From a virus (lineage: Duplodnaviria > Caudoviricetes): DNA of 64,000 bases. The stretch is from positions 15,100 to 79,099 of IMG/VR virus record IMGVR_UViG_2974666105_000001. One strand, given 5' to 3'. Positions 144 to 54,739 of this stretch are shown here, piece by piece. The notes beneath the pieces were generated by a model that saw only the letters and a program-made list of their open reading frames with translations, had not been told where the DNA came from and made no database searches. The position numbers and the translations under genes were made by a program. The first letter of the stretch is position 1. Every line of letters starts with the position of its first letter.

Positions 144-201
144 CGGTTATTCCTCCCACTCTTATTCTATGTACATGGGGGAAATATCCCCCATAAAATG
201 G

Positions 202-3200
202 TTAATTTATCAGATGATTATAAACATCTTTTGGTTTCTGTTGTCGTTTAACCGAGTCGTAAATACTTTGATCAGTAATGACAGCAAGATTTGGAGTGTT
301 AGCTGATCCTAATAAAGCTTGCAATAGCGCGTTCGTCTGTTGCTGTAATGTTACCAGTTGAGAGAGCGTACTATTATCAATATTATTAGAGTTATTAGAC
401 GAGTTTGCGATGCTACCACTTTCAAGATAGTTAATTGATTGCTTCAACTGTCTGATAGCAGCATCCTTATCGGTTAAAGAAACGACCATTTCTGGCTTGT
501 TCTTTTCAGCGATGTTAATCGTCTGAGCTTTGTCAATTAATCCACCATGTTCCATACCCTTGATGTAACGATAGGCTGCGGATGCGTTAGCCAACCGTGT
601 ACCACCAGTCGAATCCATGGCGCCACCAGATTCCCATGTTGCAAAGAACTTTTGTGCGGCGGCAGTAGGACTTGTCATACGTAATACGGCCTTCAACATT
701 CCGTTTGCGCCAGGTTCATTTAAGGCGTAGCCAATTTGACCGGCAGCAGAGTTCCATGCGTAACCGTGTCTTCTTAGCCAACTTCTTAAACCAGTTTCAC
801 GAGTAAACGTCCATTGGCCTAACCCAGTACCGTGGTCACTACTATTGACAGCAGATGGATTTAAGTTAGATTCTTGAATCCAGTTACCCAAAATACCAGC
901 AATACCACCATTTTGAGATGCTGGATAACCTTGTTTAAACGCCTTTGCTAAGGCACGAGCACGAGAAGCGACGCTACCTGATAACTTGACGTTACCAACG
1001 AGCTGTTCGTCTTGTCCGGCCTTTAACATCTTCTTAAACCAACTAGTCAATGTGTGTACCACAATGTCGCCGGTCATTCCAATGGCCTTACCAGCTAAAC
1101 CGCCACCCTTTGCAAGAGCGTTTAGCGGTGAAGCAATCATAGCAGAAAGATATTTTCCAGGCGACTTAATCATCTTACCAAGGTTATCAATCAGCTTAGA
1201 TGCTTTGGTCTCAACTCCAGAGAACCAATTACCGACACCGTGCACAGCACCGCCAATAGCACTGCCGATACCATCTAACCAGCCAGTGGCACCAGCGAAA
1301 GCTGGAATGCCTTGTCCGCGTTCTAGGTATGGTTGTACCATTCTAGCATCTTCGCCCTTAGCAATTTCAGTGCCCTTTGGAAGATTTACAATGATATTTC
1401 GCTTATTAGGAAACATTCCCATGCGTCCATCTGGTAGTTTGTAGGCTTCGCGCCAATATTTAGACTTAGCATCGTTTACCAGCGCTGGACCACCAGCAGT
1501 ACCCTTTGCATAAGTGCTTATTTTAGATGAACTGTAACTTGCTTTTCCAAGTCTAAAACTCTTGCCAACACCGATTTTCTTTTCAACGCCGTTGATGGCG
1601 TCTGCAACAGCATTCCAACCATTAACAACAGGATGAATAAGTCCGTTGTTAACAATACCAGCCATTGAGTTCCAGATACCATGCCATGCACCTCTCAGAG
1701 CACTAGCGATTCGTCCCGGCAACTTCTTAAAGAAACTGGACATGTTATTCCCAAAAGTTTTAATTTTTTTCCATATTTTACCAACCCATCCGCCAATGGT
1801 GCTAGAGACAGATTTCCATAACTTAGCCACAGGAGACAATATCTTTCGGAACCATTTCACAACGCTGTTGTAGATGTTATGGACCCATTTTCCGATAGTA
1901 CCTGATATTGACTTCCACCATCGTGAGGCTGTCTTTGAAACAGACTGCCAAGCTTTGGCTACTGGACTTAATATTTTTTTAACCCACTTAGTAACACCTT
2001 TCCAAATATTGTGAGCCCATTTTCCGACCGTACCAGAAATAGATTTCCACCATTTTGATGCTGTCTTAGAGATTGAATGCCATGCTTTAGCTAACGGAGA
2101 TAGGAGCTTACCAATCCACCTAGTAGCGGTGTGATAAATGTTCTTAACAAACTTTGTAACAATCTTTAGCGCACCATTCCATCCTTTGGAGATGCCCTTA
2201 CCAATTTTGCCCATTGTTTTTTGGATTGGCCTGACCATCTTATCAATAGTCTTACGAACATCACTAGCCCAGCGTTTAATTTTCTTTCCAACATCAGTAA
2301 AGAATTTACCCATGTTTCTGACAGCCTTGCCAATTCCTTTGAATAACTTAGCTAGACCAATTGCGGCTAATTTACCAGCAATTGCTCCTAAGGCGGCGAT
2401 GAACTTACCAATGCCCTTAACCACACCAGCAATATCCTTGCCAATCGTTACAATTGATTTACCAACAGGACTTGTCTTAAACCATTTGCCGATTTTTTGA
2501 AATGGCTTCTGAATTGCTTTAACGGCCGGAGCAAAAAATCTTCCGATTCCCTTGACCCATTTCCAAATGGTTTTTTCAATACCAGATAACATTTTTCCAA
2601 CTGACTTTCCGATACCTGTTTTACCAAGACCAGAAAACATTTTTCCAAACGATGAACTAATTGATTTACCAAGACTACTCAAACTAGGCATTTTAATACC
2701 TTTGAATAATCCGCTAAACCACTTACCGATTCCACTAATTTTAGGAAACTTAAAGTTTTTGAACATCTTTCCAATATTAGGAAGTTTAAACCCTTTAAAC
2801 ATCTTACCAAAATTGATGTGTGGCATTTTTAGTTTGCCAATCCACTTACCAATACCACCAAACCAATTACCGATTGATTTTTTAATGGTTGACATCTTAG
2901 GCATTTTGAAGTTCTTCATGGACTTCTGGATCTTCTTACCTAATTTGCCACCCCAGTCTTGACCTTTTGATCCACCTAGCCAAGATCCTGCAAGTGATCC
3001 ACCCATAGATCCTAGCTTGGCTCCAACAACAGTCCCTGCGGGTCCAAATAGTGTACCAATAGCACCACCGGCAACGCCACCAATACCTCCGCCGATAGCA
3101 CCACCAGCAAGTGTTCCACCTAATTGTCCGGCTGTTTTACCAACCTTTGAACCAGCATTTTTCTTGTTGATTCCAATAAGGTTCATGGCAGCAAGCCCAG

Positions 3201-5862
3201 TTTGTAACCATGGGACACGTTTTAGTAAACCGCCACCGACTCTAGCAACTTTTCCAATTTTAGAACCAGTAGTACCAATTCTACCAACGCGACTGCTAAT
3301 TCTCTCAGCATCTTCTGTTGTAACCCCGCCTTTCGCCATTCGGCGTAATACTGAACCTTTCGATCCAGCCTTTTTAGCGGCTCGATACTCAGAGCGAGTT
3401 GTCGTAATTTCTTCTTTGGCGGCCTTTCCAGCCTTTCCAGCCTTACCGCCAGCTCCACCACCGATTCCCCCAGCAACCTCAGATGCTTCTGCTCCAGCAG
3501 CTTCACCGGCAGATGCCCATGCGTCTGCAAGAAGCTTAACGGCTGCTGTTTGTTCGTCGATCTTAGCCACAGCAATCTTACTTGCACTCGACGTATCAAT
3601 TTTATTCGTACTGAATAATTTAGATACGACTGATGCAATTGTACCAGAGTTGCGAATAAAGGCTGCAACAGCACCAGAAACCAATCCAATTGCTGGCACA
3701 AGTAGTGCAACAGAAGCAATGGCCTTTTTAGCGCTTGGATTAAGCTTATCAAACTTATCCATGATGATCGTTAGCGCCTTAGCACCTTTAGTGATATATG
3801 GTAAAATTACTTTACCAAACTCAATCTCTAATGCTTGCAAAGTCGTCTGGAAAATCTTAAGCTGGTTCTGAGACGTCTTTAAGTTCTTTTGAGCCAAGTT
3901 GCCAATATAGTCATTCTTAGCTGATCTCTCAACTTGACCATTTAATTTATCCAATGCTTTATAATTGTCTGTTAAGATACCACCGGCCTGTTGCCCAGTA
4001 GTACCAAAAATAGCATGAAAAACATCAGTACGATCATGTCCAGAAAGATTCTTCATGTGACTGTTTAAAATGCCAAAAATAGCGGACATTGACTTCATTT
4101 TTCCATTTTTATCAGTAAAACTTTTTGTGTTAAGCCCTAAACTCTTTAAGGCGGCTGCTCCGTTTTTAGATGGAGATACTAACGAGTTAATTGTTTTTCT
4201 TAGCCCAGTACCAGCTTTGTCAGATTCAAGACCGTTGTTCGATAAAATACCCATAGCACTAGCTGTTTCAGATATACTAAATCCAGCTTGATGAGCCGTG
4301 TTACCAACATATTCCATACCTTTTCCTAGGCTTTGGAAGTCAGTAGCAGTCATATCAGCGGCATAAGCCATTTCGTTAACAACCGTTGAGGTATTTTTTG
4401 CCATTTGAGCTGTTGACTTAGCTCTTAAACCAAATGACTCCAGTGTCTGTGTTGAAACAGCGGTAACATCATTGAAATCATCACCAGAAGCAATCGCACC
4501 TTTAACAAGAGTTTTCATAGCCCCAATCGCTTGGCTAGAACTATAACCACGCTTGATTAAATCTTGATACCCATCAGCAACTTGTTTTTGTGTCAACCCG
4601 TATTGCTTAGAGTATGACTTTGTATTCTTTTCCATTAGCGCCATGTTGGCGTTAATTTCTTTAGTCCCCTCAGTGTTTGAGCTGACGATTAAGTTTTTGG
4701 TTTTATTAAAAGATGTTTGTAATTCAACAGCAAGCGATGTACCATGCTTAGCGACTGCTGCCATACCCATTGTTGCATATCCTGCTCCGCGAGAAACTGA
4801 TCCCAAAGCAGTAGCAACACCAGAATACTTTTTCTGCATTCCACCAATCTTATCACTAAACGAGTTAATAGTATTGCCAGATAACCCTACGTGCTTGTTG
4901 AGTGACTTGATCTTGGCGTCAGTTTCACCGATTTTAGCACCAAGTTCGTTTACTTTCTTAGCCTGTGCTGAGTAAGCAGCAGAAGTTTCACCAGAACGAG
5001 ATTTTACCAATGACAATTCTGACATTTCTGTCTTGTATTGATTTAATAAACCCTTTTTAGATCCAACTAAAGACCTTAATTCTACCGACATTGCGGTATA
5101 ATTCTTGCCTTCTGACCTTAAACGGTTAGCTAATGATTCTGATATTTCACTGGTTGATTTTGAATACTGTTGCATTTGATGCAAACCAGTAGCATATTTT
5201 CTCTGAGCTTCTTGGGCCTTTAAATAAGACTCTCTGGCTTTTGAGACAATTGCTGATTGCTTGTTAATATCAACGCCGGAAGCACTAGAGCTTGATTTTA
5301 ATAGCTTGTAAGCTTTTTCTTCACGACCAAGTTCGTCTTTTAGATTACGAGTCTTGGCGGCGAGCAGCTCCTTGTGTTTGGCGTTGGCGTCAGTCTCTTT
5401 ACCCTCAGCAATAAGTGCTTTTTCACTAGCTTCTAATGAGTTAGTGTATGCTTGGTGAGATTTCTTAGCACGGTCAATCCCAGTTGAATATCTAATTTCG
5501 GCAGATCTAGCAGAATCTAGCTCACTTTTGCGACGGTTTAAAGCCGCATTACTCTTAGTGAGTTCGTTAGTCCAACGCATAACTGCCAACTTTTCTTTGT
5601 CGGTTGTTGCATTGGCATTCTTCAAAGCATCTGCTAATCTCTTGTTATAATCAGTTTGTAACTCAATTTCTTTGTTCAGTCCAGTGATTTTGGCGTCCAG
5701 TGCAGCAGCACTATCGCCGGCAGCTTGCATCGCTGAGGAGCTTGAACGCCATTCTTGGCCTGTGGAGCGAATGGCCCCTTTTAATGTACGCAAACTCGAT
5801 TGAGCCTTTGTATCATTGATATTAACGTTATATGTTAAACTACCATAGGCGGCTTGCTTCAT
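202..5862 (-). CDS. Tape measure protein with C-terminal lysozyme-like domain
   Basis: 1886 aa; Ala/Gly/Lys-rich helical sequence, TP901-type core (TDFQSLGKGMEYVG), Trp-periodic repeats, C-terminal GILGNWIQESNLNP...GLGQWT motif; canonical position. Confidence 0.95.
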   Translation of the reverse strand: MKQAAYGSLTYNVNINDTKAQSSLRTLKGAIRSTGQEWRSSSSAMQAAGDSAAALDAKITGLNKEIELQTDYNKRLADALKNANATTDKEKLAVMRWTNELTKSNAALNRRKSELDSARSAEIRYSTGIDRAKKSHQAYTNSLEASEKALIAEGKETDANAKHKELLAAKTRNLKDELGREEKAYKLLKSSSSASGVDINKQSAIVSKARESYLKAQEAQRKYATGLHQMQQYSKSTSEISESLANRLRSEGKNYTAMSVELRSLVGSKKGLLNQYKTEMSELSLVKSRSGETSAAYSAQAKKVNELGAKIGETDAKIKSLNKHVGLSGNTINSFSDKIGGMQKKYSGVATALGSVSRGAGYATMGMAAVAKHGTSLAVELQTSFNKTKNLIVSSNTEGTKEINANMALMEKNTKSYSKQYGLTQKQVADGYQDLIKRGYSSSQAIGAMKTLVKGAIASGDDFNDVTAVSTQTLESFGLRAKSTAQMAKNTSTVVNEMAYAADMTATDFQSLGKGMEYVGNTAHQAGFSISETASAMGILSNNGLESDKAGTGLRKTINSLVSPSKNGAAALKSLGLNTKSFTDKNGKMKSMSAIFGILNSHMKNLSGHDRTDVFHAIFGTTGQQAGGILTDNYKALDKLNGQVERSAKNDYIGNLAQKNLKTSQNQLKIFQTTLQALEIEFGKVILPYITKGAKALTIIMDKFDKLNPSAKKAIASVALLVPAIGLVSGAVAAFIRNSGTIASVVSKLFSTNKIDTSSASKIAVAKIDEQTAAVKLLADAWASAGEAAGAEASEVAGGIGGGAGGKAGKAGKAAKEEITTTRSEYRAAKKAGSKGSVLRRMAKGGVTTEDAERISSRVGRIGTTGSKIGKVARVGGGLLKRVPWLQTGLAAMNLIGINKKNAGSKVGKTAGQLGGTLAGGAIGGGIGGVAGGAIGTLFGPAGTVVGAKLGSMGGSLAGSWLGGSKGQDWGGKLGKKIQKSMKNFKMPKMSTIKKSIGNWFGGIGKWIGKLKMPHINFGKMFKGFKLPNIGKMFKNFKFPKISGIGKWFSGLFKGIKMPSLSSLGKSISSSFGKMFSGLGKTGIGKSVGKMLSGIEKTIWKWVKGIGRFFAPAVKAIQKPFQKIGKWFKTSPVGKSIVTIGKDIAGVVKGIGKFIAALGAIAGKLAAIGLAKLFKGIGKAVRNMGKFFTDVGKKIKRWASDVRKTIDKMVRPIQKTMGKIGKGISKGWNGALKIVTKFVKNIYHTATRWIGKLLSPLAKAWHSISKTASKWWKSISGTVGKWAHNIWKGVTKWVKKILSPVAKAWQSVSKTASRWWKSISGTIGKWVHNIYNSVVKWFRKILSPVAKLWKSVSSTIGGWVGKIWKKIKTFGNNMSSFFKKLPGRIASALRGAWHGIWNSMAGIVNNGLIHPVVNGWNAVADAINGVEKKIGVGKSFRLGKASYSSSKISTYAKGTAGGPALVNDAKSKYWREAYKLPDGRMGMFPNKRNIIVNLPKGTEIAKGEDARMVQPYLERGQGIPAFAGATGWLDGIGSAIGGAVHGVGNWFSGVETKASKLIDNLGKMIKSPGKYLSAMIASPLNALAKGGGLAGKAIGMTGDIVVHTLTSWFKKMLKAGQDEQLVGNVKLSGSVASRARALAKAFKQGYPASQNGGIAGILGNWIQESNLNPSAVNSSDHGTGLGQWTFTRETGLRSWLRRHGYAWNSAAGQIGYALNEPGANGMLKAVLRMTSPTAAAQKFFATWESGGAMDSTGGTRLANASAAYRYIKGMEHGGLIDKAQTINIAEKNKPEMVVSLTDKDAAIRQLKQSINYLESGSIANSSNNSNNIDNSTLSQLVTLQQQTNALLQALLGSANTPNLAVITDQSIYDSVKRQQKPKDVYNHLIN

Positions 5863-5934
5863 TTAATAAATCCTCCTCACATACGAAAACAAGCCCACCA
5901 AAGTAGACTTGACAAATAAACTAATCAAACGTTT

Positions 5935-6170
5935 CTAATGATCACGACTATCAAGCTCAGCTTTATGGTCTTCCATCCAATAACCCAAAGGCTCGATGGT
6001 GTCATCATCATCACCACTAACTTGACTACCATCTTCTTCAACTGTTAAAGTCTCGATAAGATCAAAATAGTTAGTTTCTTCTAGGTTATTAAAAGTATCA
6101 TTATGTTGCTGGATAAGATCTCTTTCGAGACGATTGATGTTATCTAGCGTCTCCTGAAACGTCTGCGGTG
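5935..6170 (-). CDS. Tail assembly chaperone T segment (frameshift extension of the upstream chaperone)
   Basis: No own RBS/start; overlaps the 3' end of the chaperone in the +1 frame; sits between chaperone and TMP. Confidence 0.75.
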
Positions 6171-6529
6171 TCGCTGGGCGTATCAGAATCGTCTTCACCA
6201 TCCTCATCATCAATGTGCATGATCTTTTGAATGATTTGTCCAAATAATTCATCAGTTTCGTCTGGTTCAATGTCTTCCAGCTTATCTGCTTGTGGTTCTG
6301 TTAGCTTTAAAATATCAGCAATAAATTCGATTGTTGCATCGGTTGCTTCTAACTTTCCACTTAGAAATGCGTCATAAGCTTCTTCATTAGACATGTTCTC
6401 AGCATCAATCTTACTTAATTTTTCAAGCTTGATTTGAACCTTTAACGTTTTCTTCAAGTTTTTATTTGTTTCGTTAACTTCGATAGGCTTTTTAATTCCT
6501 AATACCTTAGCATCAATTTTGACAGTCAT
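6140..6529 (-). CDS. Tail assembly chaperone (G)
   Basis: GAGGAG RBS before ATG 6529; between major tail and TMP; acidic C-terminus. Confidence 0.8.
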   Translation of the reverse strand: MTVKIDAKVLGIKKPIEVNETNKNLKKTLKVQIKLEKLSKIDAENMSNEEAYDAFLSGKLEATDATIEFIADILKLTEPQADKLEDIEPDETDELFGQIIQKIMHIDDEDGEDDSDTPSDTADVSGDAR

Positions 6530-6638
6530 ATAAATCTCCTCGTCTTTCATATTAAATTATGTATACCACCAAAAAGGTGGTAGTTGCTATTCAGCAACGA
6601 TGGTTGCGCCATCATAACTTGGAGTTATCGACACCACT

Positions 6639-7250
6639 TTAGGCGCCGGCGTCACTGGGGGTGTACCCTGGGAAGATAAACTTCATCCAATCATCAAGCT
6701 TAAATTCAGTGTTAGCTTCGTCACCCTTAGCATATGCAACCTTATCGGAAGAACGGTTAACGGCCGTAAATGTTAACGAATCAGCAGCCAACTGTTCCGT
6801 GTCGGTATTAGTTTGCATGTTATGTTCTTCAAGACCAAAGGTCCCTTTAACTAACGCCAAGTGAAGAATGTTGTTTAGACGCCCGTGGGTAACAAATTCA
6901 AGTGCTGAATATGGCGCCCTAGTGTCAGAAGTAACGACTGAGAAACCTTTAGAATTATCAACACCAGTAATAGCGTCGATGACATCTTCTGGAATGTCGT
7001 TTGCTCCAACGGTCGCGGTGATTGAACCAGTACCCTTGCCAGATGTTTCAACCACCATATCAGACCCATAAATCTTAGTCATAGTTGGTGCTAAACCTGT
7101 GATGTTACCGACCGTCATACCTTGCGCAGTTGATGCGTTTAGGTTGAAGACGCCGGTAGTACCAATAGCCTTATTCGTTAAATCAATTTTTTCGGTATCT
7201 TGTGTAAAAATAGCGACTTTGGCACTATCAATACCTTTGGTTTTTGCCAT
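6639..7250 (-). CDS. Major tail (tube) protein
   Basis: 203 aa; position; sequence typical of Firmicute siphovirus tube proteins. Confidence 0.85.
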   Translation of the reverse strand: MAKTKGIDSAKVAIFTQDTEKIDLTNKAIGTTGVFNLNASTAQGMTVGNITGLAPTMTKIYGSDMVVETSGKGTGSITATVGANDIPEDVIDAITGVDNSKGFSVVTSDTRAPYSALEFVTHGRLNNILHLALVKGTFGLEEHNMQTNTDTEQLAADSLTFTAVNRSSDKVAYAKGDEANTEFKLDDWMKFIFPGYTPSDAGA

Positions 7251-7267
7251 TAGTAATTACCTCTTTC

Positions 7268-7645
7268 TTAATAAATTGTCTTTTTGAAATGGTAAGTGCT
7301 ATATAATTGAGACGTGCTAGGGTCTCTATCAATACCGCCACCAATTGTTTGAAACCAACCATTCTTTCTTAACAAGTTCCTGATCGGTCTTTCGTATAAC
7401 GCTGTTAAATCTCCATCCGCTTTAACTGGATAAAAGAATTGAACTTGAACTGTCCCGTCATCAGAAATAATATCGTCGCTTCCAAAACCACTAGGAATAC
7501 GAGCAATGTCGTTTACTAAAATGACAATTTTATTCAGCTTTTGTGACTGAATGCTGTGTGGCAGTCCATATGAGAATACATACTTTGGATCAATTCCGTC
7601 AACTCCAGAGTTGCGGATGATCTCTTTTACATCATTTGAAATCAT
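7268..7645 (-). CDS. Tail terminator / tail completion protein
   Basis: 125 aa; VQVQFFY and STYHF motifs; immediately upstream of the major tail gene. Confidence 0.7.
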   Translation of the reverse strand: MISNDVKEIIRNSGVDGIDPKYVFSYGLPHSIQSQKLNKIVILVNDIARIPSGFGSDDIISDDGTVQVQFFYPVKADGDLTALYERPIRNLLRKNGWFQTIGGGIDRDPSTSQLYSTYHFKKTIY

Positions 7646-8100
7646 TATAGCAACCCCTTTGCATTAAGAATCGCTTTAGCAGTTTGTGTCTGAGCAGTAA
7701 AGATTTGATCATATGGCATCGTCTTTGTTGCATTCTCAAACCAAAACTGTGCTGGTTGCCTATACGTTCCCCAGTCAGTCCAGACCGCGATTGGGTAAGC
7801 TTTTCTTTCAAATCCAACCTCTGTTGCACCGTCGATGAACTGATTAGGCTTATGAGTAATATGATCACGCAAGTGCCCAATTGATTCTCCATATAATTGT
7901 TTATCTTTGGCATCTTCAAATTCATCATATGGTGTGTTATCATAGAGATGTTTCTCAATGATGGGCACGGCGGATTCAACGATTGCGGAGCGCTCTTTTC
8001 TTGAAAGTTTGAAATTATCAAGCTTTTTCAATAACTCGTCTTCACCAGTAACCTCAATTGATCCGAGACCATTAGTTACCAACGTTTTATTAACTGCCAA
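7645..8100 (-). CDS. HK97 gp10-like neck protein
   Basis: Probable TTG start at 8100; WTDWGT..QPAQFWFE motif; synteny. Confidence 0.7.
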   Translation of the reverse strand: MAVNKTLVTNGLGSIEVTGEDELLKKLDNFKLSRKERSAIVESAVPIIEKHLYDNTPYDEFEDAKDKQLYGESIGHLRDHITHKPNQFIDGATEVGFERKAYPIAVWTDWGTYRQPAQFWFENATKTMPYDQIFTAQTQTAKAILNAKGLL

Positions 8101-8512
8101 CGTCATCATCTCCATATCCGCCAGTGGATGCTTGATTGCCACCGTTCTTAACAACTGATTTCAATGACAATAAATCATAAGTGACGATAGCGGTAGTATC
8201 GGGAACTTTGTAGGTGATAATATAAAACTTGCCTCGATACTTAGCCCGATAACTATCATAGTCAAAATTAGGACGGTGTTTAACGGCAATGACCATCGTG
8301 TCTTCCATATCCATACCGTTAACACCAACAATGTTTCTGTCTGATACTCGATACGGAGCGCAATGGAATGTGTATTTAATTTTAAAGTTGCTATCATCTA
8401 ATGTGTCGGCACCATTATCAATAATGTTACCGTTGGACAGCTCTGTGTATTCATCTGCTACTCCTAGATAAACCTTTTCTTTGTATCGCCACAGGTCAAC
8501 TTTATTAGCCAT
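8090..8512 (-). CDS. Head-tail adaptor / head closure protein
   Basis: 140 aa; synteny; Y.A.Y.GK.Y.I motif. Confidence 0.65.
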   Translation of the reverse strand: MANKVDLWRYKEKVYLGVADEYTELSNGNIIDNGADTLDDSNFKIKYTFHCAPYRVSDRNIVGVNGMDMEDTMVIAVKHRPNFDYDSYRAKYRGKFYIITYKVPDTTAIVTYDLLSLKSVVKNGGNQASTGGYGDDDVGS

Positions 8513-8524
8513 TTATGCACCTTC

Positions 8525-8818
8525 TTAAATTGAGAAATTGCGTCCATAGTTGATAACCGTGTCAAGCGACGCAACATTTTGAGTCCCACTTGTAACAGGA
8601 GATCCATCTCTACGTAAGTATGATGCAGTTGCGACCTCTAAAACGGCTGTGTCAATCATGCTTTGATAGTCTTCTTGTCTCTTGTTAAGAAACTGGTTGT
8701 CTTTTCCTTGAACATATAAATCAACATAGTTCTTAGCGTTATCTAAATAAATCTTAACGTCTTCATCGTCATCTGCATTAATGTGATTTTTAAAATCATC
8801 GAGAGAAACTGACATCAT
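8525..8818 (-). CDS. Head-tail connector (gp6/gp15-like)
   Basis: SLDDFKNHINADDDED..YLDNAKNYV; AVLEVAT..Y..R pattern. Confidence 0.8.
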   Translation of the reverse strand: MMSVSLDDFKNHINADDDEDVKIYLDNAKNYVDLYVQGKDNQFLNKRQEDYQSMIDTAVLEVATASYLRRDGSPVTSGTQNVASLDTVINYGRNFSI

Positions 8819-8852
8819 TGCACCTCCTATGTACCCGTTAAGGGTTTACCCC

Positions 8853-9296
8853 TTAAGCGGTTGGCGTTGCTTTAACTGCTTCCGACTTAGCTGATTCCCC
8901 AGCGCCGTTCTTAACCGTTGCCTGGACAGTATATTCAGTACCAGCAGTCAGTCCAGTAATTGACCCAGTTAATGAAGTCTTTAAATCTACCGTTCCATTA
9001 TTGGTGCCGTCAGTCCAATAAACAACTCGGTCGGTGATTGCACTGCCTGTATTTTCACCATCAACTAAAGTAACATCAATTTTGCCAGAACCAGCGGTGA
9101 GCGTTGCGGTTGGTGCTGATGGTACTTTATCTAAAGTTGTAAAATCTGAAATTGTTGTCTTCTCAGATGCACCGGCATATGCAATTTGATATCCAGAAAC
9201 CTTTGTGTTCGGCTTTAACCCAGTAATTGTAACTGGAGATGGCTGATTGTCAATTTTCTTTGCGCCAGCATTATCGTAAACATCAAAATTTGCCAA
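8853..9296 (-). CDS. Fibronectin type III / Ig-like virion accessory (decoration) protein
   Basis: Two FN3-like segments (TITGLKPNTKVSGY; ITGLTAGTEYTVQATVKNGAGES); AGGAGG 8 nt before TTG 9296. Confidence 0.75.
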   Translation of the reverse strand: MANFDVYDNAGAKKIDNQPSPVTITGLKPNTKVSGYQIAYAGASEKTTISDFTTLDKVPSAPTATLTAGSGKIDVTLVDGENTGSAITDRVVYWTDGTNNGTVDLKTSLTGSITGLTAGTEYTVQATVKNGAGESAKSEAVKATPTA

Positions 9297-9421
9297 AAAC
9301 ATAACCTCCTATCGTGAAACCATATGTATGCCCCCACAATGGGGGTAATCGGATTTACTACTTGGCAACAACCGTTGCACCATCGGCGGTCGGTGTTACA
9401 CTAGTCACCGTCGGTGCCGGA

Positions 9422-10702
9422 TTAATTACTCGCAGGCTTAGCTACAACGAATGCTGATGGATTAGTAACAGTACCGTCCATATATCCGTTAAGAACAACC
9501 AAGTGACCACCAGTCATAGCTTGCGTAGTATCTGAAACTACGTGAGTTAACTGTAAGCCTTGCTTAGTCATAATCGTATAACCAGCGTTAAAGTTACCAA
9601 GGATAATTTGACCATTCTTGTTACCGTTCAAGACGTCTGAAACGAACACTGGGATTCCTTGGAAGGAATAACCAGGGCGTACACCAACTGCACCGGCGAT
9701 AGCCGTTTGCATTTGTGGCTTAAAGATCAAATGTTCGTTGTCGTCATCTTTCAACTTAGAAACAGCATTGAAGGCATCACGAGACATAACAAAGATCGCT
9801 TGGTCTAAATATGCAGGGTTAATTGACATAGTAAAGTCAAGCATTTCATCCAAGGTTGGGGTTGCACCGGCTAAAGTAACGACCTTAACGTCATCAGCAC
9901 CGATAACTGGTTTGAACGTCTTGTTAGCGTCTTCGCCAGTCTTAGCACCAACTAATACCGCGCGTTCAATAGCTTTACCTAATGAACGACCCAAACGGCC
10001 AATAGCATAATCGACAACGTCCGGTGCACTATCGTTAATCATCATTTCTGATAATTGCAATGCGGCACCGACACGCTTTTGAGTCAAGGTAACGTACTTC
10101 AAAGTTGGGGTTTGTGCCTTAACAGCTTCGAGTTCACCAACGAAACCATCGTCAGAAGTATCGTTTTCACGAACGACTTCCAAGTTACCATTCATAGAAC
10201 CAACCTTGTTTGACAAAGCAAACACTGGTGAAGTTTCTTGTAACTTCTGGATAATTGTTTGTGAGACGCTCGTTGGAATTAAAACACCACCGTTTGATGA
10301 AGTACCATTAACGGCATTACCCCATGACAAACCATTGTCAGGAAGATCACGAGATTCTTGTGGCAAGTCTTTTTGTTCCTTGACAGCTTCCACGTACTTC
10401 TTGGCTGCTTCACTCCCACGTAACTTACCACGGATCATATCAGCAGTGGCACGCTTTTCGAGAGCTTTAAATTGCTTCTTTTCCATTTCCACACTCCGTT
10501 CATTGTTTGCTGGAACTGCGTTACGACGTTCTTCGTCCAGTTCAGCAATATCATCGTTAATTTTTGAAATATCGTCTTTAATTGAACGCATTTCCTTAAT
10601 TTGATCATCAGTGATCGTCTTATTATCAATGGCGTCTTTAAAACCGCCCAGTTTTTCCTTTAAAGCAGTCCGCTTTTCTAAAAGACCTTTCTTAGTCTTC
10701 AT
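9422..10702 (-). CDS. Major capsid protein, HK97 fold, with N-terminal coiled-coil delta domain
   Basis: GGAGG RBS before ATG 10702; GGVLIPTSVSQTIIQKL, LSEMMINDS, ILGNF motifs; in frame with upstream protease as sequenced. Confidence 0.92.
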   Translation of the reverse strand: MKTKKGLLEKRTALKEKLGGFKDAIDNKTITDDQIKEMRSIKDDISKINDDIAELDEERRNAVPANNERSVEMEKKQFKALEKRATADMIRGKLRGSEAAKKYVEAVKEQKDLPQESRDLPDNGLSWGNAVNGTSSNGGVLIPTSVSQTIIQKLQETSPVFALSNKVGSMNGNLEVVRENDTSDDGFVGELEAVKAQTPTLKYVTLTQKRVGAALQLSEMMINDSAPDVVDYAIGRLGRSLGKAIERAVLVGAKTGEDANKTFKPVIGADDVKVVTLAGATPTLDEMLDFTMSINPAYLDQAIFVMSRDAFNAVSKLKDDDNEHLIFKPQMQTAIAGAVGVRPGYSFQGIPVFVSDVLNGNKNGQIILGNFNAGYTIMTKQGLQLTHVVSDTTQAMTGGHLVVLNGYMDGTVTNPSAFVVAKPASN

Positions 10703-11725
10703 CTGCCATGCCTCCAATTTCTTCATAGAGCTTAGATGCTTCAAGACTCCGTTTTCTTGCTTCTTTTTTTCGTCGTCTTTCTTGCTTGGTTTCTTACCAG
10801 CCGGAACTTGAACTCCGTCTTTTGGCTTATCATCGTCCGTTTGAGTGTCTTCGGGTGCGTCGCCAGAATCGTCTGGTTCTGGAACGTCCGAGTCATCGTC
10901 ACGGGCGGATAATACTCCTTGAATACCAGTAAGAATGCTTTGCGTTAAAGTAGCTGCGAAGTCGTCAAGGTCGATAGTTTGCTTTGTGTCAGTAACTGCA
11001 TCCTTACCATCTGGTTGATCGTCACGCTTTGCTGGCTTTACCACAACTTCATTTGCTGGTAATTTACCGGCACGACGTTCGAGTTCTTCACAAAGATCTC
11101 TTGTTTCTACACTGTCAAGCTTCAAGTCATTACCCTCCTTTTTAATATTCACAATTTCTGAAACGCTCTTGATACCTCTTTTTTCAAGGTCTCGTAGCGT
11201 CTTTAATCCACGTGCTTCAATGCTAGAACTTAAATATGCTGGGAATCTAACAGCGGAAACTTCCTTTAGGAACAGTTCATTGACTGTTCTAAGAGGAACA
11301 CCATCATCAAAGTCTCCGCCATCCATGTCCCAACTGTCATCTAGGACGATAAACCCAAAACTCATACTAGTGATAACACCAGTCTTAATTAACTCATAGG
11401 TATCTCGTCCGTCATTTGTATCTAGGATTTGAGCTTCCATATAAAGCCCTTGGTCGTCTACTCTTAAGACGAGCGATCCATTTGCGGTAGTAGCCAGAAG
11501 CTTGTCCGAGTCATGTTCAGCATAAAAGTCGATTACGTCTCCATCTGAGATTGCAGACTCGAAAGCCGTTGGAGAGATCGTCTCTCGGAACGGGCTACCA
11601 TCAGCCGACATAACTTGACTGTAAGATCCAGCTCGGTTAACATAACCAGAAACTTTAAGATTATCATCATCAAAAGATAAATCTCTAGTTTCAAAGCTAA
11701 GAGTTCTTAATTCTGTCTTTTTAAT
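10692..11725 (-). CDS. HK97-family prohead protease with acidic scaffold-like tail
   Basis: AEHD, GL..EA, SFGF, EVSAVRFPAY motifs; probable ATT start at 11725; end depends on a -1 shift at 10763-10769, otherwise fused to capsid. Confidence 0.85.
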
Positions 11726-13157
11726 CTTGATTGCCTCCTAACGCATTGTTATCAGCCTTATGTTGATGGCTGTCTTGCTGATTTTTTGTATTTGGTGCTT
11801 TCTGGGCACCTTTTGCAGGCGATTTGCCGACTGTGGCACTATCAGAATCAATCGATGTGTTTGCACCAACATCAGCACCACCAGCAATCCCAAGGTTAGG
11901 AATCTTCATTTCACCAGTCTTAGGATAATACAGAACAGATCCAAGACTTAAATTAATGAAGTCGTCTCCAGCAATGTCTGCGAACCCAAATTTGTTTCTG
12001 AACTCATCATAAGAAATCAAGCCTTTGTCATAAAGTGCCCCATAAGAGGCGACTTTTTCTTTGAAGGTATTCTGCATGATTGTGTCAGTATCGAACTTAA
12101 AGAAAATTCCGTCTTCTTTTTCGCTCTCTAGCAATAATTCCTTATTGATAGCAGCTTCAAAGCTTGACAGAATCGGTTTTAAACAATACTGGAAGAATTG
12201 GAGGTTATTTTGCTCATTAGAGTTATACTTGTTCGCACTCGCATTGATTAGTGTTTCTGGAATATTAAACATGCGCGCGATTTCACCAAGCATTGCTTTT
12301 TTGCTGGAATCTAGTTGCATATTATCTGGATTCGTGCTAATCTGTTTATATTCAAGCCCGCCTTCTAAGAACAATGTCTTACCAGCGTTTTTGCTACCCG
12401 TGTAACTTTGGTTAAACTGCGATTTCAAGCGGTCTAACGTTTCTTGCGCCACGGTCCTTTGGCTAGAAACAGCTCCAACTGGAACGGCACCGTTGGCCAT
12501 TAAGTTCTTTTCATAATCTCGTTGTGCCAGCGCTAGTTGCAACGTGGGTGCATAATCCGACATGATACCAGTAGAAGTAATACCATCTGGAGTGTCTGAA
12601 ATGATGTTCATTAGGTCATCTTCATCATAGTTATAACTGCCAGACTGGGAATTATACGTATAGACGCCATAATACTTATATCCACCATACGTATAAACTT
12701 CGGTTGTCATGTCTTTAGACATTAAGGGATAAATACCGTTAATGTTGTTTTTGCTTCTATCTATATACGAGAACGATCTACCATACAGAAGCAAGTCCTT
12801 GACAACTGAGCGCTTATAATTAAAAGCGGACATTGACTCGTTGACTTGCGAATTAAGTAATGCTGTACGATAGTCATTCTTAACGGGTAACGGGACGCCT
12901 TCATCGCTATTCTTCATCATAAGAATATCAAGTGACGCAACAGTATCAGCAACAAGTGCTACTGCGGCACCAAACGACGGAATTGCCATGACAGAATCTT
13001 CTGTGATTGGCTCCGTATCTCCGTTTAAAAGCATTGGTCCAGATCCAGTTTGGGATCTTACAAAAGTGCCGCCTCGACTGTCTTGTCCCGGCTGTTGTTG
13101 CGTAAATGGTAAGCTGAAAATATTCTTTAGCGACCATTTATTATTACTCTTAGCGAT
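11721..13157 (-). CDS. HK97-family portal protein
   Basis: NAGKTLFLEGGLEY, IARMFNIP..L, EQNNLQFFQYCLKP motifs; first in-frame ATG at 13034, probable true start ATC at 13157. Confidence 0.92.
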   Translation of the reverse strand: MAKSNNKWSLKNIFSLPFTQQQPGQDSRGGTFVRSQTGSGPMLLNGDTEPITEDSVMAIPSFGAAVALVADTVASLDILMMKNSDEGVPLPVKNDYRTALLNSQVNESMSAFNYKRSVVKDLLLYGRSFSYIDRSKNNINGIYPLMSKDMTTEVYTYGGYKYYGVYTYNSQSGSYNYDEDDLMNIISDTPDGITSTGIMSDYAPTLQLALAQRDYEKNLMANGAVPVGAVSSQRTVAQETLDRLKSQFNQSYTGSKNAGKTLFLEGGLEYKQISTNPDNMQLDSSKKAMLGEIARMFNIPETLINASANKYNSNEQNNLQFFQYCLKPILSSFEAAINKELLLESEKEDGIFFKFDTDTIMQNTFKEKVASYGALYDKGLISYDEFRNKFGFADIAGDDFINLSLGSVLYYPKTGEMKIPNLGIAGGADVGANTSIDSDSATVGKSPAKGAQKAPNTKNQQDSHQHKADNNALGGNQD

Positions 13158-13175
13158 TTTTAGTTCACCCCTTTG

Positions 13176-14885
13176 TTAAAGCAAAGTGATATTGGCCTGT
13201 CCACCGATGATATTTGAAAATTCATCAATTTCCCATAGTGACATTGCGTCAACCACGGCTGCAACCATATCAATTTTGCCGTTTGATTTTTTCTTATTTA
13301 AGAAATAAGACAAGTTACTGTCTGTAACCATTCTTGCGTTCATAAAGTTCTCTTTGAGCATATCGTTCTTATCATATGCAAAATTTCCATCTTCAATAGA
13401 CTCACGAAGTAATTTTGTCCCTGGGTATAATCCCTTTGCGTTTTGCGGAACCTCAATGCCATCATATCCAGCAGCCAAAAACTTAGCTACCGTAGATCGT
13501 GCGTTCCACTTATCATACCCAAAGCCCTTAATATTAACCCCGTATTTTTCCTCTAACTTAAAGAAGAAGTCTTCAACAAAACCATAATCAATCGTTGTGT
13601 CTCCAGACGAATAACCCCAACCTTCGTTTTCGCTATGCTGGTAGTCCCATCCTTCGACCTTTGATTTCTCATTAATTCTTCCGGCTGGGAAGAACGACCA
13701 TGCTTTTGCTACATATTTAGCATGACTTTCATCAAATGTAACCATCGCAAGACCAAAATTATCACGAGATTCAGCGAAATCAAGACCCACGAACACATCT
13801 TTGCCATACCAATCGTAACCTTGAACTAATTCTGAATTATCAAGATCATTCTCTGTGACAAACTGTTCAGCCTGTGCACCGTCAACGAAGATATTCATGA
13901 ACTTCGTCAAAAAGTTTTGACGCTTATCAGCATAGGTAATAGCATCTTCACGATCTTTAAAAAGTCTTTTTTTAACTGATGGAAATTCTTGCGAAAGAGG
14001 ATTGACTTTTATTAGCTCTTTATCGCTAGTTGCCCACTTTTTTGGCTCATCTGGACGATATATTAAAGCAAAATAAGTCGGATCATATAACTCCCCATCA
14101 ACAATCTTGTCCTTGGCGCGCTCTATTTCAGCAGTCATAGGATTATGTAATGAATCATACGCAGTTGAAATAATAATACCAAGCGGATTTGAAACAAGGT
14201 TTTGTCCAGATTGCATGGCTTGTATAGGATAACCATTTGGTAAGGCCCCGACTTCGTCAGCTAAAAACGCTACTGGCTCGCGGGCATCAAGCCTGTTGTT
14301 CGAGTTAGCTAATGGCTTATAAGTATTCTTTGTCACTAAACAAGTGATTTCCTTATTGGTTACTTTGAAGAATCTCTCCAGTTCTGGAGAACCATCAATC
14401 AAAGAGTCAACCTGTGTCTTCAATTGAGACGACAAGTCTAAGTCTGGAGCGACTGAATAAAATTTTGAGTATCTAGGCTCCAAAATTAACAATAAGATAA
14501 AAATTATAGAACTTATGAAAGTTTTTCCATTCTTGCGTGGGATAAGCATAGTAGCTGTGTTATATCTACGCAAACTATGGTCATCTTTATGTCTCCAGCA
14601 GAAAATATTAACAAAAAAGAACCACTGAAACCCAGCGAGGGCATCATAAGCACTTTCTCCTCGTCTAGGTCCAGTTGCCATAGTGATTAATTTAAGTAGC
14701 TTAGACACCTTATCAAGCGCCCTTATATCAAAATAGTAGTCGCCTTTTCCGTTTAAACTATCATTAACTTCTCTAATGAAGCGATCGGTAACAATTTTTA
14801 CATCATTGTTGACGATAATATCGCCGTTTTTGATTCCAAGCGCATATTTGTAAGCTGGATGATTAAATATTTCTTTATCTTTCAA
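13176..14885 (-). CDS. terL: Terminase large subunit
   Basis: Walker A IPRKNGKT, Walker B LADEVG, nuclease VGLDFA, GYDKWNA, KIDMVAA; GAGGTG RBS before TTG 14885. Confidence 0.96.
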   Translation of the reverse strand: MKDKEIFNHPAYKYALGIKNGDIIVNNDVKIVTDRFIREVNDSLNGKGDYYFDIRALDKVSKLLKLITMATGPRRGESAYDALAGFQWFFFVNIFCWRHKDDHSLRRYNTATMLIPRKNGKTFISSIIFILLLILEPRYSKFYSVAPDLDLSSQLKTQVDSLIDGSPELERFFKVTNKEITCLVTKNTYKPLANSNNRLDAREPVAFLADEVGALPNGYPIQAMQSGQNLVSNPLGIIISTAYDSLHNPMTAEIERAKDKIVDGELYDPTYFALIYRPDEPKKWATSDKELIKVNPLSQEFPSVKKRLFKDREDAITYADKRQNFLTKFMNIFVDGAQAEQFVTENDLDNSELVQGYDWYGKDVFVGLDFAESRDNFGLAMVTFDESHAKYVAKAWSFFPAGRINEKSKVEGWDYQHSENEGWGYSSGDTTIDYGFVEDFFFKLEEKYGVNIKGFGYDKWNARSTVAKFLAAGYDGIEVPQNAKGLYPGTKLLRESIEDGNFAYDKNDMLKENFMNARMVTDSNLSYFLNKKKSNGKIDMVAAVVDAMSLWEIDEFSNIIGGQANITLL

Positions 14886-15012
14886 AATAATCACCTCAAT
14901 ATATGTAAAGCCCAACTGTGGCATGGGCCAGCCATTTTATTACAGTTGATGGTTATAAAAGAACATGGAAAGAAAACGCCCACCTGTTTTGCTTTATTGA
15001 GTTAAGCTACAA

Positions 15013-15084
15013 GCGAATAATCGGACTCGAACCGATGTTATCAGATTGGAAATCTAATGTGTTGCCCAACTACACTATATTCGC
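15013..15084 (-). tRNA. tRNA-Gly(TCC)
   Basis: Cloverleaf GCGAATA...TTAGA-TTTCCAA-TCTGA...GGTTCGAGTCC...TATTCGC; no encoded CCA. Confidence 0.9.
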
Positions 15085-15227
15085 ATAAAGTCCCCACTTG
15101 GGCCACATTGTTAAGAGGTGTGTGGGGTGCGATTGTGTATGGTCGGATAAGTAGACGTCACTTATCGGGACTAGTGGTCAGATACAAAGCCTCTGCCGGG
15201 CAATATGGCGACCTCAACCATATTTAT

Positions 15228-15423
15228 GTGATTACTAGGGAGTCGAACCCTAGACTTAATCTGATTCTAAGCACCAACTTCTGTGCTAGTGTCGAACTAG
15301 CTCGCCATCAGATTTCAGATATTGCATAACTCAATGGCCCCCTGTATTTCAGCGTGCACATAGCCTACTCTGTGAGAGCATATGAATTAAGCTTTAGCAT
15401 TTTTACCTTTCCGCCATAATCAC
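15228..15423 (-). ncRNA. tRNA-shaped RNA with an ~118-nt domain in place of the anticodon loop
   Basis: Acceptor GTGATTA/TAATCAC, class II-type D arm GCGGAAAGG..TGC, T arm TAGGG-TTCGACT-CCCTA; insert contains a second T-arm-like hairpin. Confidence 0.6.
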
Positions 15424-15455
15424 GTGTTAAAATGTAAGTTTTATTAGTAATACAA

Positions 15456-15605
15456 CCACCCAGGCGGGTATCGAACCCACGCACAACGAATGCCTTTGTT
15501 CAAGCACGCTGTTAATCTCTACTATTTTGACAAAAGCTGACTAAGGCTATGCAGCGACATACCTTTAACCACTCGGAAGATTGATGTGCTCTCCATGACT
15601 GGGTA
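15456..15605 (-). ncRNA. Second tRNA-shaped RNA with insertions (Ser/Leu-like parts)
   Basis: Acceptor TACCCAG/CTGGGTG, D-like CCGAGTGGTTAAAGG, T arm GTGGG-TTCGATA-CCCGC; ~61 nt between anticodon-stem strands ATGTC/GGCAT. Confidence 0.5.
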
Positions 15606-15642
15606 AAATTAAGCTGGTTTTGTAGAGTTCCATAAACTCTTA

Positions 15643-15714
15643 CTGCTCGGGCTGGGATCGAACTAGCGATCTCTTGATTAACAGTCAATTATTCTACCGC
15701 TGAACTACCGAGCA
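15643..15714 (-). tRNA. tRNA-Asn(GTT)
   Basis: Cloverleaf TGCTCGG...ATTGA-CTGTTAA-TCAAG...TTCGATC...CCGAGCA G. Confidence 0.9.
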
Positions 15715-15725
15715 ATGATTATGTA

Positions 15726-15897
15726 TGCCCGACACACTAGCACCCGTAGCGCCGTGTTATCAGGGCTTTATCTATCTCAACCGAGGTTAGACCAGATAGA
15801 TTTGGTTTTTCTACTCGCAAAAGAATGCTCACCTCCAAAGGCTACTCCATTATGGAACTTTTACTTTCGGGTGCGCGCTTCTCGGAACTTAAATTAC
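15726..15897 (-). ncRNA. Unidentified structured RNA bounded by TACATA sites
   Basis: GCACCCG/CGGGTGC, ATCTATCT/AGATAGAT and GCCC..ACAC/GTGT..GGGC pairings; no credible ORF on the minus strand. Confidence 0.5.
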
Positions 15898-15972
15898 TAT
15901 GTAACATAAGCGGGTTTTACTACCCCGCGTGTATTATATCTTAAATATGTACTGCTGACGTTGTGTCAGCTT

Positions 15973-16476
15973 TTAACTGTTGATAATTTTCTCTAACTCA
16001 CTGTTACCACTGCTTCGATCACCAATGGTCATGGCGCTCAATTGAGCACGGCTAGACGGAGACAGTCCGTATTGGACAGCCAATGTTCTAAAACGATCTA
16101 AAAACTTAATATGTGTGTTAATGGCTGGATTTTCAACCATTTTGACACCAAATTTTGTTCTTTGCTCAACCATTAATTCATCATTTTTCATTGCTTTGTT
16201 GGATTGTTCCATCATAGCCAAACATTCAGCTAGAGCACCCACACCCATTCTGTCTACATTTGATAGAATGTCAACATCGGCTAAAAGGTGGTAGATATAA
16301 TGATAATACTTTTCGGCAGTTTCCCATCCTTTAATAAAGTCAGGTGCCACGTTTACTTCATTATCTTTGCCTTTGAGCCGTTCTTCATCCGCGATACGTG
16401 CTCTTAATTCTGATTGAGACTGATTATGACCTTTGGTTAGAGCAGCGGGCTTTCTTGCATTAGGCAATTTATCCAC
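15973..16476 (-). CDS. terS: Terminase small subunit, P27 family
   Basis: ENPAI....FL......YGLSPSSRAQL motif. Confidence 0.9.
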   Translation of the reverse strand: MDKLPNARKPAALTKGHNQSQSELRARIADEERLKGKDNEVNVAPDFIKGWETAEKYYHYIYHLLADVDILSNVDRMGVGALAECLAMMEQSNKAMKNDELMVEQRTKFGVKMVENPAINTHIKFLDRFRTLAVQYGLSPSSRAQLSAMTIGDRSSGNSELEKIINS

Positions 16477-16480
16477 CTCT

Positions 16481-16933
16481 CTAAAACGTTAAATCTTTAT
16501 CTAAATCTATTTTTACTTTTGTTAAATCCCAGTCGAAATCAATTCCGCCAAGCCCCATAGCAAGGTTGCACTCTCGACATAACGTAACACAATTTGATTC
16601 GTCATACATCAATGTCGGGAACTTGACCCTTGGCTTAATATGGTGGACAGTTAGATCGGTGTAGACATGCTTATGAAGCTTAATTAAGCATCTCTGACAC
16701 TCACCACCGTCCCTAAGAATGATCTGTTTTCTAAAAATCCGCCAACGTTTGGACGTTAATTCCCTGTCTGTATCGCGTTGATTGATTCTATTCTCCTTGG
16801 CAGTTCTATTATTTTTTCTTTTTTTAATTGGACAATCATGTGTTGAAATGTCAACAATCATGCCACAATAAGGGCATATTTTGGAGTCCTTACCCGATTT
16901 CGTATTCTTCAAGATCATCACCATTAACTTCAA
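16481..16933 (-). CDS. Packaging-associated HNH endonuclease (HK97 gp74-like)
   Basis: RDGGECQRC...VHHIKP...SNCVTLCRECN; adjacent to terS. Confidence 0.85.
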   Translation of the reverse strand: MKLMVMILKNTKSGKDSKICPYCGMIVDISTHDCPIKKRKNNRTAKENRINQRDTDRELTSKRWRIFRKQIILRDGGECQRCLIKLHKHVYTDLTVHHIKPRVKFPTLMYDESNCVTLCRECNLAMGLGGIDFDWDLTKVKIDLDKDLTF

Positions 16934-17021
16934 TTAGAATACCGCAATAGGGACAAACAATATATGTGTCTTTCTTGCCTACTTCGACTGGAGTTGAACA
17001 TGACGGACATTCTTGTGCCAT
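16890..17021 (-). CDS. 43-aa zinc-ribbon protein (not in ORF track)
   Basis: MAQECPSCSTPVEVGKKDTYIVCPYCGILIEV...; GGGAG RBS. Confidence 0.65.
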   Translation of the reverse strand: MAQECPSCSTPVEVGKKDTYIVCPYCGILIEVNGDDLEEYEIG

Positions 17022-17182
17022 GCGTCTCACTCCCTTTTAATATGTATTACCAATGCAAAGACTGAAAGAAATCATTGGTATGCGCTTCCTTGGCGAATTT
17101 TTTGAACAATAATGTTCGTCTCTATAACTTTGACGAGTTATGTACGAGAAGATAAAATCTTCTCAGGAGGAATAATGAATGA

Positions 17183-20589: not shown

Positions 20590-20990
20590 ACGATCGTGCA
20601 AGCATAGATCATCACATACAACATCAAGTCATCAACTTACAATCAACATCACAACATCAATGTAACAACACACATCACACAACCAACAACACATGAACAC
20701 TCACTCATAACAAGTCATACAATCACGTTTAAGCAACTCAACACATCATCAACACAATAGTATACAACTAACACACAACTGCTTACAACGTCTCTCAATC
20801 GCTTATAATGTTGTTGTATTTAGTATCTATCATCAATCACGATCAACATACATCATTCAACCAACAATCGTCAATATAATTAGATCTAACAACGTTTAAC
20901 CTATTCTCTTATAACTACACACAATAACGCTTAAAACGTATCACAACGCTTCTTATTGACTAATATAATCAATAACACAATATAAATATG
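20590..20990 (+). repeat. Low-complexity C/A-rich (G-poor) tract
   Basis: Degenerate ACAACATCA/CAACA units; no ORF of 60 aa or more. Confidence 0.85.
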
Positions 20991-20995
20991 TACAC

Positions 20996-21029
20996 AAAAA
21001 AAAGATCTAACTAATTAAGTTAGATCTTA
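20996..21029 (-). terminator. Intrinsic terminator of the leftward block
   Basis: AAGATCTAAC-TTAATTA-GTTAGATCTT then T run. Confidence 0.8.
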
Positions 21030-54680: not shown

Positions 54681-54709
54681 TTGACACAGCATACGTTATT
54701 TAGTATGCT
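54681..54709 (+). promoter_or_regulatory. mazF promoter overlapped by operator AGCATAC-N8-GTATGCT
   Basis: TTGACA-N17-TATGCT; palindrome 54688-54709; TACATA at 54713-54718. Confidence 0.8.
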
Positions 54710-54739
54710 ATATACATATTAAAGAAAGAGGTCATAAAT

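Follow-up and report, generated by a model that had tools for sequence, protein, structure and literature searches.

The closest described counterparts of the RNA elements considered here are the target sites of the MazF toxins of the Bacillota. Bacillus subtilis EndoA (MazF; ndoA gene) cuts RNA in vivo strictly at the six-letter word U^ACAUA, with UACAU being cut only if an A follows (PMC11780869); the MazFs of Listeria and Staphylococcus aureus likewise cut U^ACAUA, with UACAUC and UACUUA as weak off-targets (bioRxiv 10.64898/2026.08.06.743204), and the identical off-target order is seen in the Symbiobacterium enzyme (PMC10893535). We analyzed a 64,000-nucleotide (nt) stretch of DNA, henceforth the window, which corresponds to positions 15100-79099 of the 79,099-bp phage genome of IMG/VR record IMGVR_UViG_2974666105_000001. 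Its late gene junctions carry copies of this word preceded by a hairpin (hereinafter modules), which are candidate RNA-processing sites in a virus that also encodes an orphan MazF (gp54740). The window belongs to a Lenus-like L. plantarum siphophage of the Tybeckvirinae, with a structural region showing 93-94% identity to the L. plantarum siphophages Lenus and Nyseid of the same subfamily and about 75% identity to ATCC 8014-B2, Gut-P1, Satyr, Maenad, P1, and P2.

The locus resembles the EndoA/MazF systems in the six-letter word, its single-stranded context, and the off-target order (UACAUC, UACUUA), and the phage protein likewise has a PemK/MazF domain and retains the catalytic Arg and Thr. 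It differs in that the phage gene lacks MazE and its product is only about 37% identical to EndoA, and in the presence of hairpin-capped modules at viral gene junctions, a layout that has not been described for cellular MazF regulons. T4 RegB, which targets GGAG in early mRNA leaders, is comparable as a phage-encoded, toxin-like, sequence-specific RNase that cuts the intergenic and translation-initiation regions of its own phage. However, RegB belongs to another protein family, requires ribosomal protein S1, and inactivates early messages by a cut inside the Shine-Dalgarno (SD) sequence, whereas the cut proposed here would affect late messages, following a protective hairpin and leaving the SD downstream of it intact. 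In T7, host RNase III processes early and late mRNA by cutting long polycistronic RNA at intergenic hairpins into stable monocistronic pieces with a 3' hairpin; yet it cuts within long duplexes, whereas here the stems, short and variable, flank the conserved element, a single-stranded hexamer. The arbitrium phages phi3T and SPbeta are also Bacillota phages with a life cycle tied to a U^ACAUA-specific MazF (PMC10769878; Guler et al. 2024), but there the host MazEF is modulated via AimX, YosL, and MazE binders to set lysogeny, and these accounts describe neither a phage-borne MazF nor hairpin-capped junction sites. We found no paper on hairpin-capped MazF sites between phage genes or on a phage-borne MazF used for processing.

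UACAUA modules of the late operon

The late (structural) operon is encoded on the minus strand and extends from about window position 17458 beyond the left end of the window, as far as the lysis genes and a recombinase; its transcript is roughly 32 kb and has a tRNA cluster. On this transcribed strand, a hairpin followed by TACATA is found at 10 late junctions within the window, none of them with a U-tract (Table 1). Nine of these, described as hairpins lacking U-tracts, and an additional copy at 20987 had been listed in a first-pass annotation of the window; all ten coordinates are real, and the description of the nine holds, with the site at 17139 being absent from that list. The copy at 20987 does follow a true terminator and has the only U-run after a hairpin among the 11 window sites. 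Two more late modules lie outside the window at the Dit/Tal and holin/recombinase junctions (genome positions 13433 and 2126, respectively). A TACAT that the same annotation had noted at 15432 is present but reads TACATT on the transcribed strand. Modules occupy about 8 of the 10 true non-coding gaps of the late operon; without exception they follow the stop codon of the preceding gene and precede the SD of the next one, at a distance of 9-29 nt from its start codon. Stem length across the modules is 5-9 bp, and the hairpins of the late sites (dG -7.5 to -20.8) end 0-6 nt before TACATA, leaving the conserved hexamer outside the stem. In folding predictions, UACAUA has a mean probability of being unpaired of 0.66 versus 0.43 for random hexamers of the same region (p=0.0015); such a predicted accessibility is what an enzyme specific for single-stranded RNA needs.

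The word statistics rest on gene calls from our own open reading frame (ORF) heuristic, cross-checked against the Lenus RefSeq annotation, and cover four Tybeckvirinae genomes, viz., that of the window phage, B2, Satyr, and the L. brevis phage ATCCB. Relative to a codon-preserving shuffle, the genes of the window phage contain just two sense-strand copies of TACATA (14144 and 33216, the same two found by eye in the first-pass annotation) against 15-16 expected (z about -4), whereas the reverse complement is at expectation (17-18 versus 18-19). Same-strand intergenic copies are in excess (13 versus 4.4 expected), and a hairpin precedes 9 of these 13, compared with 10% of intergenic positions overall (binomial p=5e-7). 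The sense-strand bias suspected in that annotation is thus borne out by the shuffle; the whole-window count (37 versus 51 expected) masks it because depletion and enrichment cancel. The hairpin coupling recurs in all four genomes (p between 5e-7 and 1e-13), with 13-18 intergenic copies in each against about 4.5 expected, and a blind ranking of all hexamers that follow intergenic hairpins gives TACATA the first or second rank in each of them, in company with the terminator word TTTTTT. In the genes of the window phage, TACATA is the seventh most depleted of about 3000 hexamers and is among the very few avoided words that are strand-specific, the others being for the most part restriction sites (palindromic or two-orientation), along with the SD-like GGAGGT.

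Pooling the four genomes sharpens this picture: sense-strand TACATA in coding sequences amounts to 10 copies versus 59-60 expected (observed/expected 0.17, about 6-fold depletion), as against 90 versus 88 (1.02) for antisense TATGTA. The next most depleted one-base variants are TACATC (0.47), TACTTA (0.63), and TACATT (0.65), with thirteen others, including TACATG (0.93), ranging from 0.75 to 1.12. This depletion gradient mirrors the on-target word of MazF and its published off-targets (UACAUC and UACUUA). The match is tighter than that claimed in the first-pass annotation, which had invoked the five-letter U^ACAU: the motif itself stands, but it is the exact hexamer U^ACAUA that is avoided, TACATG being undepleted and TACATC and TACATT only mildly so. 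An artefact of codon-pair usage was considered and rejected, since the depletion affects each of the three reading frames and spares the reverse complement, the TA content of which is equal.

Orthologous junctions across three or four genera, in the window phage, B2, and Satyr, and often in ATCCB, carry a hairpin followed by TACATA, namely those after terS (two sites), before tRNA-Asn, before terL, and at the capsid/FN3, FN3/connector, major tail protein/chaperone, TMP (tape measure protein)/Dit, Dit/Tal, and holin/recombinase boundaries. The stems of these modules share no sequence, and therefore what is conserved is the structure and the hexamer rather than a repeat; a mobile repeat was rejected on the same grounds. 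The Tybeckvirinae have 7-15 modules per genome versus 0-3 in the MazF-less phages LP65, phiJL-1, Lb, Sha1, phi11, and SPP1 (two in the 131 kb of LP65 and none in phiJL-1, Lb, phi11, or SPP1). From the hexamer, its strand specificity, and the off-target gradient, it appears probable that TACATA is read as an RNA site of the MazF type.

Table 1. Window coordinates of the UACAUA modules, the mazF leader, and the mazF gene
Position	Strand	Junction or feature	Elements	Orthologous sites
168..195	-	TMP/Dit junction	9-bp hairpin 174-195; UACAUA 168-173; Dit start 24 nt on	Hairpin+TACATA in B2 (22805) and Satyr (59223), stems different
6558..6582	-	Major tail protein/chaperone junction	Hairpin 6564-6582; UACAUA 6558-6563	B2, Satyr, ATCCB
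8828..8860	-	FN3 protein/connector junction	Hairpin 8835-8860; UACAUA 8828-8833, abutting SD GGAGG	Layout TACATA-GGAGGTG likewise in B2, Satyr
9323..9345	-	Capsid/FN3 junction	Hairpin 9331-9345; UACAUA 9323-9328	
14902..14949	-	Before terL	Hairpin 14912-14949; UACAUA 14902-14907; terL start 16 nt on	
15720..15766	-	Before tRNA-Asn (15642-15715)	Long imperfect hairpin 15727-15766; UACAUA 15720-15725, 6 nt from tRNA	Matching layout in Satyr (75562), B2 (6162)
15898..15928	-	Non-coding stretch after terS	Hairpin 15910-15928; UACAUA 15898-15903	B2 (5409), Satyr (75740)
15946..15970	-	Directly after terS stop	Hairpin 15954-15970; UACAUA 15946-15951	
17041..17080	-	19 nt before block of 43-aa (amino acid) Lar-like ORF/HNH/terS	Hairpin 17048-17080; UACAUA 17041-17046	
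17139..17164	-	After 91-aa gene	Hairpin 17146-17164; UACAUA 17139-17144	Satyr (77017)
20987..21028	-	Ordinary terminator, weaker member	Hairpin 21002-21028 with U-run; UACAUA 9 nt later	
54681..54718	+	mazF leader	Sigma-A-like promoter TTGACA-17-TATGCT, spacer = inverted repeat 54688-54709; UACAUA 54713-54718; mazF start 21 nt on	
54740..55105	+	Orphan MazF/PemK endoribonuclease gene, candidate cutter	121 aa; Pfam PF02452	

The phage MazF

The product of the mazF gene matches the PemK_toxin domain (PF02452) with an E-value of 6.3e-18 over 107 of the 109 profile positions and belongs to the MazF-like PHROG 1936. Among solved structures, it is closest to B. subtilis EndoA and S. aureus MazF (E about 1e-14), which lead other MazFs by nine orders of E-value. 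The catalytic Arg25 and Thr48 of EndoA align to Arg33 and Thr56 of the phage protein, and both residues are invariant in 12 phage homologues. A mazF gene is present in every Tybeckvirinae genome examined (39-100% identity to the window copy), and in the window phage, B2, and ATCCB, representing three genera, it is itself preceded by a hairpin and TACATA, the ATCCB stem being unrelated. A genome-contig search with the phage MazF returned only Lachnospiraceae, and a word-indexed protein search returned phage relatives only. As the first-pass annotation had recognized, no MazE is encoded next to it: upstream there is a 68-nt gap to a methylase gene, and downstream are ORFs of 107 and 182 aa without a Pfam family, the former of which gives a low-confidence AlphaFold model (pLDDT 59).

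The promoter of mazF is one of two in the window (52255-52290 and 54681-54712) with a perfect TTGACA, a 17-18 nt spacer starting with (A)AGCATA, and a -10 element TATGCT; the class also occurs in B2 (70041, 47916, and 47092) and Satyr (35729). The spacer and the -10 element jointly form the inverted repeat AGCATA..TATGCT, one copy of which drives mazF, and judged by its sequence this repeat looks like an operator for a phage regulator.

A candidate processing model and its rivals

We propose that the modules are RNA-level cut sites of a MazF/EndoA-type endoribonuclease, and slightly favor a version of this model in which the phage MazF takes part. Under this proposal, the late transcript of about 32 kb with its tRNA cluster would be divided into defined pieces by cutting at U^ACAUA. 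With the cut falling between the U and the A, each upstream piece would end in a hairpin that blocks 3' exonucleases, and each downstream cistron or tRNA precursor would acquire a 14-34 nt leader with a 5'-OH and an intact SD. Gene bodies, from which the site has been removed, would be immune; given that the genes are nearly free of UACAUA, the messages would probably be cut only at the modules. The phage MazF would be made from the early/middle arm. The location of modules after the capsid and major tail genes would fit with a raised relative stability of the most-needed messages. The sequence evidence makes a link between the modules and the orphan MazF plausible, and we see about equal chances for and against the antitoxin-less phage enzyme supplying or guaranteeing the cutting while attacking host mRNAs at the same time. 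The broader scenario, to which we lean somewhat less than to its negation, is that the Tybeckvirinae, as lytic phages of Lactobacillaceae, domesticated an antitoxin-less MazF as an RNase for both processing and host shutoff, such that only host messages and hairpin-capped junctions would be cut, freeing stable single-cistron mRNAs and tRNA precursors.

Several observations weigh against this reading, above all against the part given to the phage enzyme, and some of them are what a purely host-based alternative would predict, namely that the sites are used by, or tolerated and hairpin-buffered against, a host U^ACAUA MazF released in infection, with the phage MazF serving a separate purpose, be it general host shutoff, titration of host MazE, or cutting with a different specificity. 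In four phages of L. plantarum and L. brevis in which tblastn detects no MazF (LP65, phiJL-1, Lb, and Sha1), sense-strand coding TACATA is depleted just as strongly (pooled, 5 versus 49 expected; LP65, 2 versus 30.4, z -5.4; phiJL-1, 0 versus 5.3; Lb, 0 versus 4.7; Sha1, 3 versus 8.5), and the UACAUC off-target signal is also found among them (TACATC in LP65, 11 versus 23.5). The depletion is therefore not creditable to the phage MazF, and L. plantarum and L. brevis cells must hold a U^ACAUA activity of their own; hence a host enzyme must also exist, and it may share the work or do all of it. The S. aureus phage phi11 is comparably depleted (2 versus 13), and the temperate, MazF-less Sha1 has three junction sites with a hairpin or terminator followed by TACATA. 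Identity between the phage MazF and EndoA is about 37%, as against at least 60-65% among proven U^ACAUA cutters, and the Tybeckvirinae MazFs diverge from each other by up to 61% while the motif stays unchanged, such that it remains constant across enzymes only 39-60% identical; a conserved host enzyme fits this at least as well. In Semele, a myophage with a MazF, the 44-kb structural arm contains no more than three modules. The Streptococcus phages, serving as a baseline without MazF, have a milder TACATA deficit (16 versus 30-31, mostly from MM1) and no UACAUC/UACUUA signal, and thus a background deficit of about 0.5-0.7 may be unrelated to MazF. An endogenous MazEF has been reported in L. 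plantarum WCFS1 (PMC10221531), which favors the host enzyme, whereas the reported absence of a canonical MazF from the genus Lactobacillus (bioRxiv 10.64898/2026.08.06.743204) tells against a MazF-type cutter and against one supplied by the host alone. Also contrary to the host-only alternative are the concentration of hairpin-coupled intergenic enrichment in the one subfamily that always carries mazF, and the fact that LP65 and phiJL-1 are simply without the word. On balance, we regard that alternative as unlikely, though it deserves to be taken seriously. The attribution to the phage's own MazF that headed the first-pass annotation is hence not upheld in that form, given the depletion in MazF-less phages and the low identity to characterized U^ACAUA enzymes. 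Its fallback of a host enzyme does cover the MazF-less data, and the co-occurrence with mazF that it proposed to test is seen for dense modules in the Tybeckvirinae but fails for coding-sequence depletion and for the junction sites of Sha1.

The remaining alternatives concern the nature of the signal itself. The hairpins were rejected as intrinsic terminators, since 10 of the 11 window sites lack a U-tract, and as T7-type RNase III sites, which are duplexes of about 20 bp cut inside the stem, in light of stems of 5-9 bp with the conserved element outside them. The strand-specific selection and the hairpin coupling show that RNA is read but do not identify the reader, which leaves room for recognition by an RNA-binding protein or by an RNase of another kind, or for a signal made up of hairpin and UACAUA that causes factor-dependent pausing or attenuation; this we deem improbable, as the exact hexamer and the graded depletion of the published MazF off-targets would then be a coincidence, the hairpins have no U-tract, and the stems fall below RNase III length. 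Still less probable, and already disfavored in the first-pass annotation, is a DNA-level reading in which TACATA would act as a late promoter or initiator for host RNA polymerase with a phage factor, the hairpins being the 3' ends of the preceding transcripts. A short conserved word ahead of most late cistrons does recall the -10-only late promoters of T4, and TACATA lies near +1 at a few sigma-A promoters (54681 in the window, 3461 in B2, and 15687 and 35729 in Satyr). However, a DNA word should be avoided in antisense at least as much, and here it is the sense copies that are removed from genes, with the antisense ones at expectation. Moreover, TACATA lacks the -7 T and is accompanied by neither a -35 element nor a TGn; sigma-70-like sites in the late region show no excess (45 versus 42 expected); and most consensus early promoters of these phages are without TACATA. 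The FN3/connector copy (8828) directly adjoins the SD GGAGG, as do its counterparts, across three genera in total, so that transcription initiated 7 nt downstream would begin within the SD or beyond it. The depletion is also equal in phi11 and LP65, which are unrelated phages that control their late genes differently.

Should a MazF/EndoA-type enzyme cut the modules as we propose, they would exemplify a second kind of mRNA processing programmed by a phage, in addition to T7/RNase III and T4 RegB, and one built on a toxin-antitoxin RNase with a six-nucleotide specificity that was recognized only in 2024-2026. This would provide a physiological role for orphan MazF genes, of which Bacillota phages have many (99 phage records), and would mean that phage genomes are shaped by MazF. 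From the genes of phages that infect L. plantarum and L. brevis, UACAUA has been lost 6- to 12-fold in a strand-specific manner, which implies that a U^ACAUA RNase is active in hosts for which the canonical enzyme has been reported missing. The modules could also be usable as portable RNA-processing parts for lactobacilli.

Further features of the phage genomes

Several observations concern individual sites and neighboring regions. In Sha1, a hairpin-UUUU-TACATA arrangement occurs at TMP/Dit (19004) and a hairpin-UUUU-TACATACATA arrangement at Dit/Tal (20848-20857), both being junctions shared with the Tybeckvirinae. Just downstream of the 17041 module, the 43-aa ORF (16890-17021, minus strand) matches a Lar-like restriction-alleviation PHROG (E 5e-11). 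An Rfam scan of the window gave only four tRNAs above threshold. Between tRNA-Asn and tRNA-Gly on the minus strand lies a 557-nt non-coding stretch (15085-15641) with two segments resembling tRNA T-arms, GGTTCGATACC and GGTTCGACTCC, that were not called by ARAGORN. Parts of this stretch match Listeria phage B025 and Lactobacillus phage Lb at 84-88% identity, and 15153-15277 within it has a sub-threshold match to the Listeria small RNA rli62 (E 0.011). Near 15140 it reads TACACA where Satyr carries a hairpin and TACATA, which may be a decayed site.

The region 24800-25900, read in the minus-strand sense, is A/C-rich with few ORFs and many repeats of the ACACA/ACATA type, and includes three sense TACATA copies, two without a preceding hairpin (25085 and 25149) and one after a weak stem of 5-6 bp (25049). 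Similar sequence occurs in B2 at 75.4-75.6 kb and close to 80 kb, and the window region may represent an origin or repeats related to packaging.

Restriction-type words are nearly gone from the genes of the window phage, viz., GATATC (2 versus 21), CTGAAG (0 versus 19), CTTCAG (0 versus 17), and ATGCAT (0 versus 15), as well as TTCGAA, TCTAGA, AGTACT, and CTGCAG. LP65 likewise avoids CTGAAG/CTTCAG, GAATTC, and ATGCAT, and the avoidance in the two phages suggests shared host restriction systems; LP65 additionally has a sense-strand deficit of CAAAAA (8 versus 70). Lastly, the DnaE-type DNA polymerase, which is a single 3.9-kb gene in Lenus, is represented in the window by two plus-strand ORFs (59828-62431 and 62789-63955) and is interrupted by an intervening ORF in B2 and Satyr, which suggests an insertion site for an intron, intein, or homing endonuclease.

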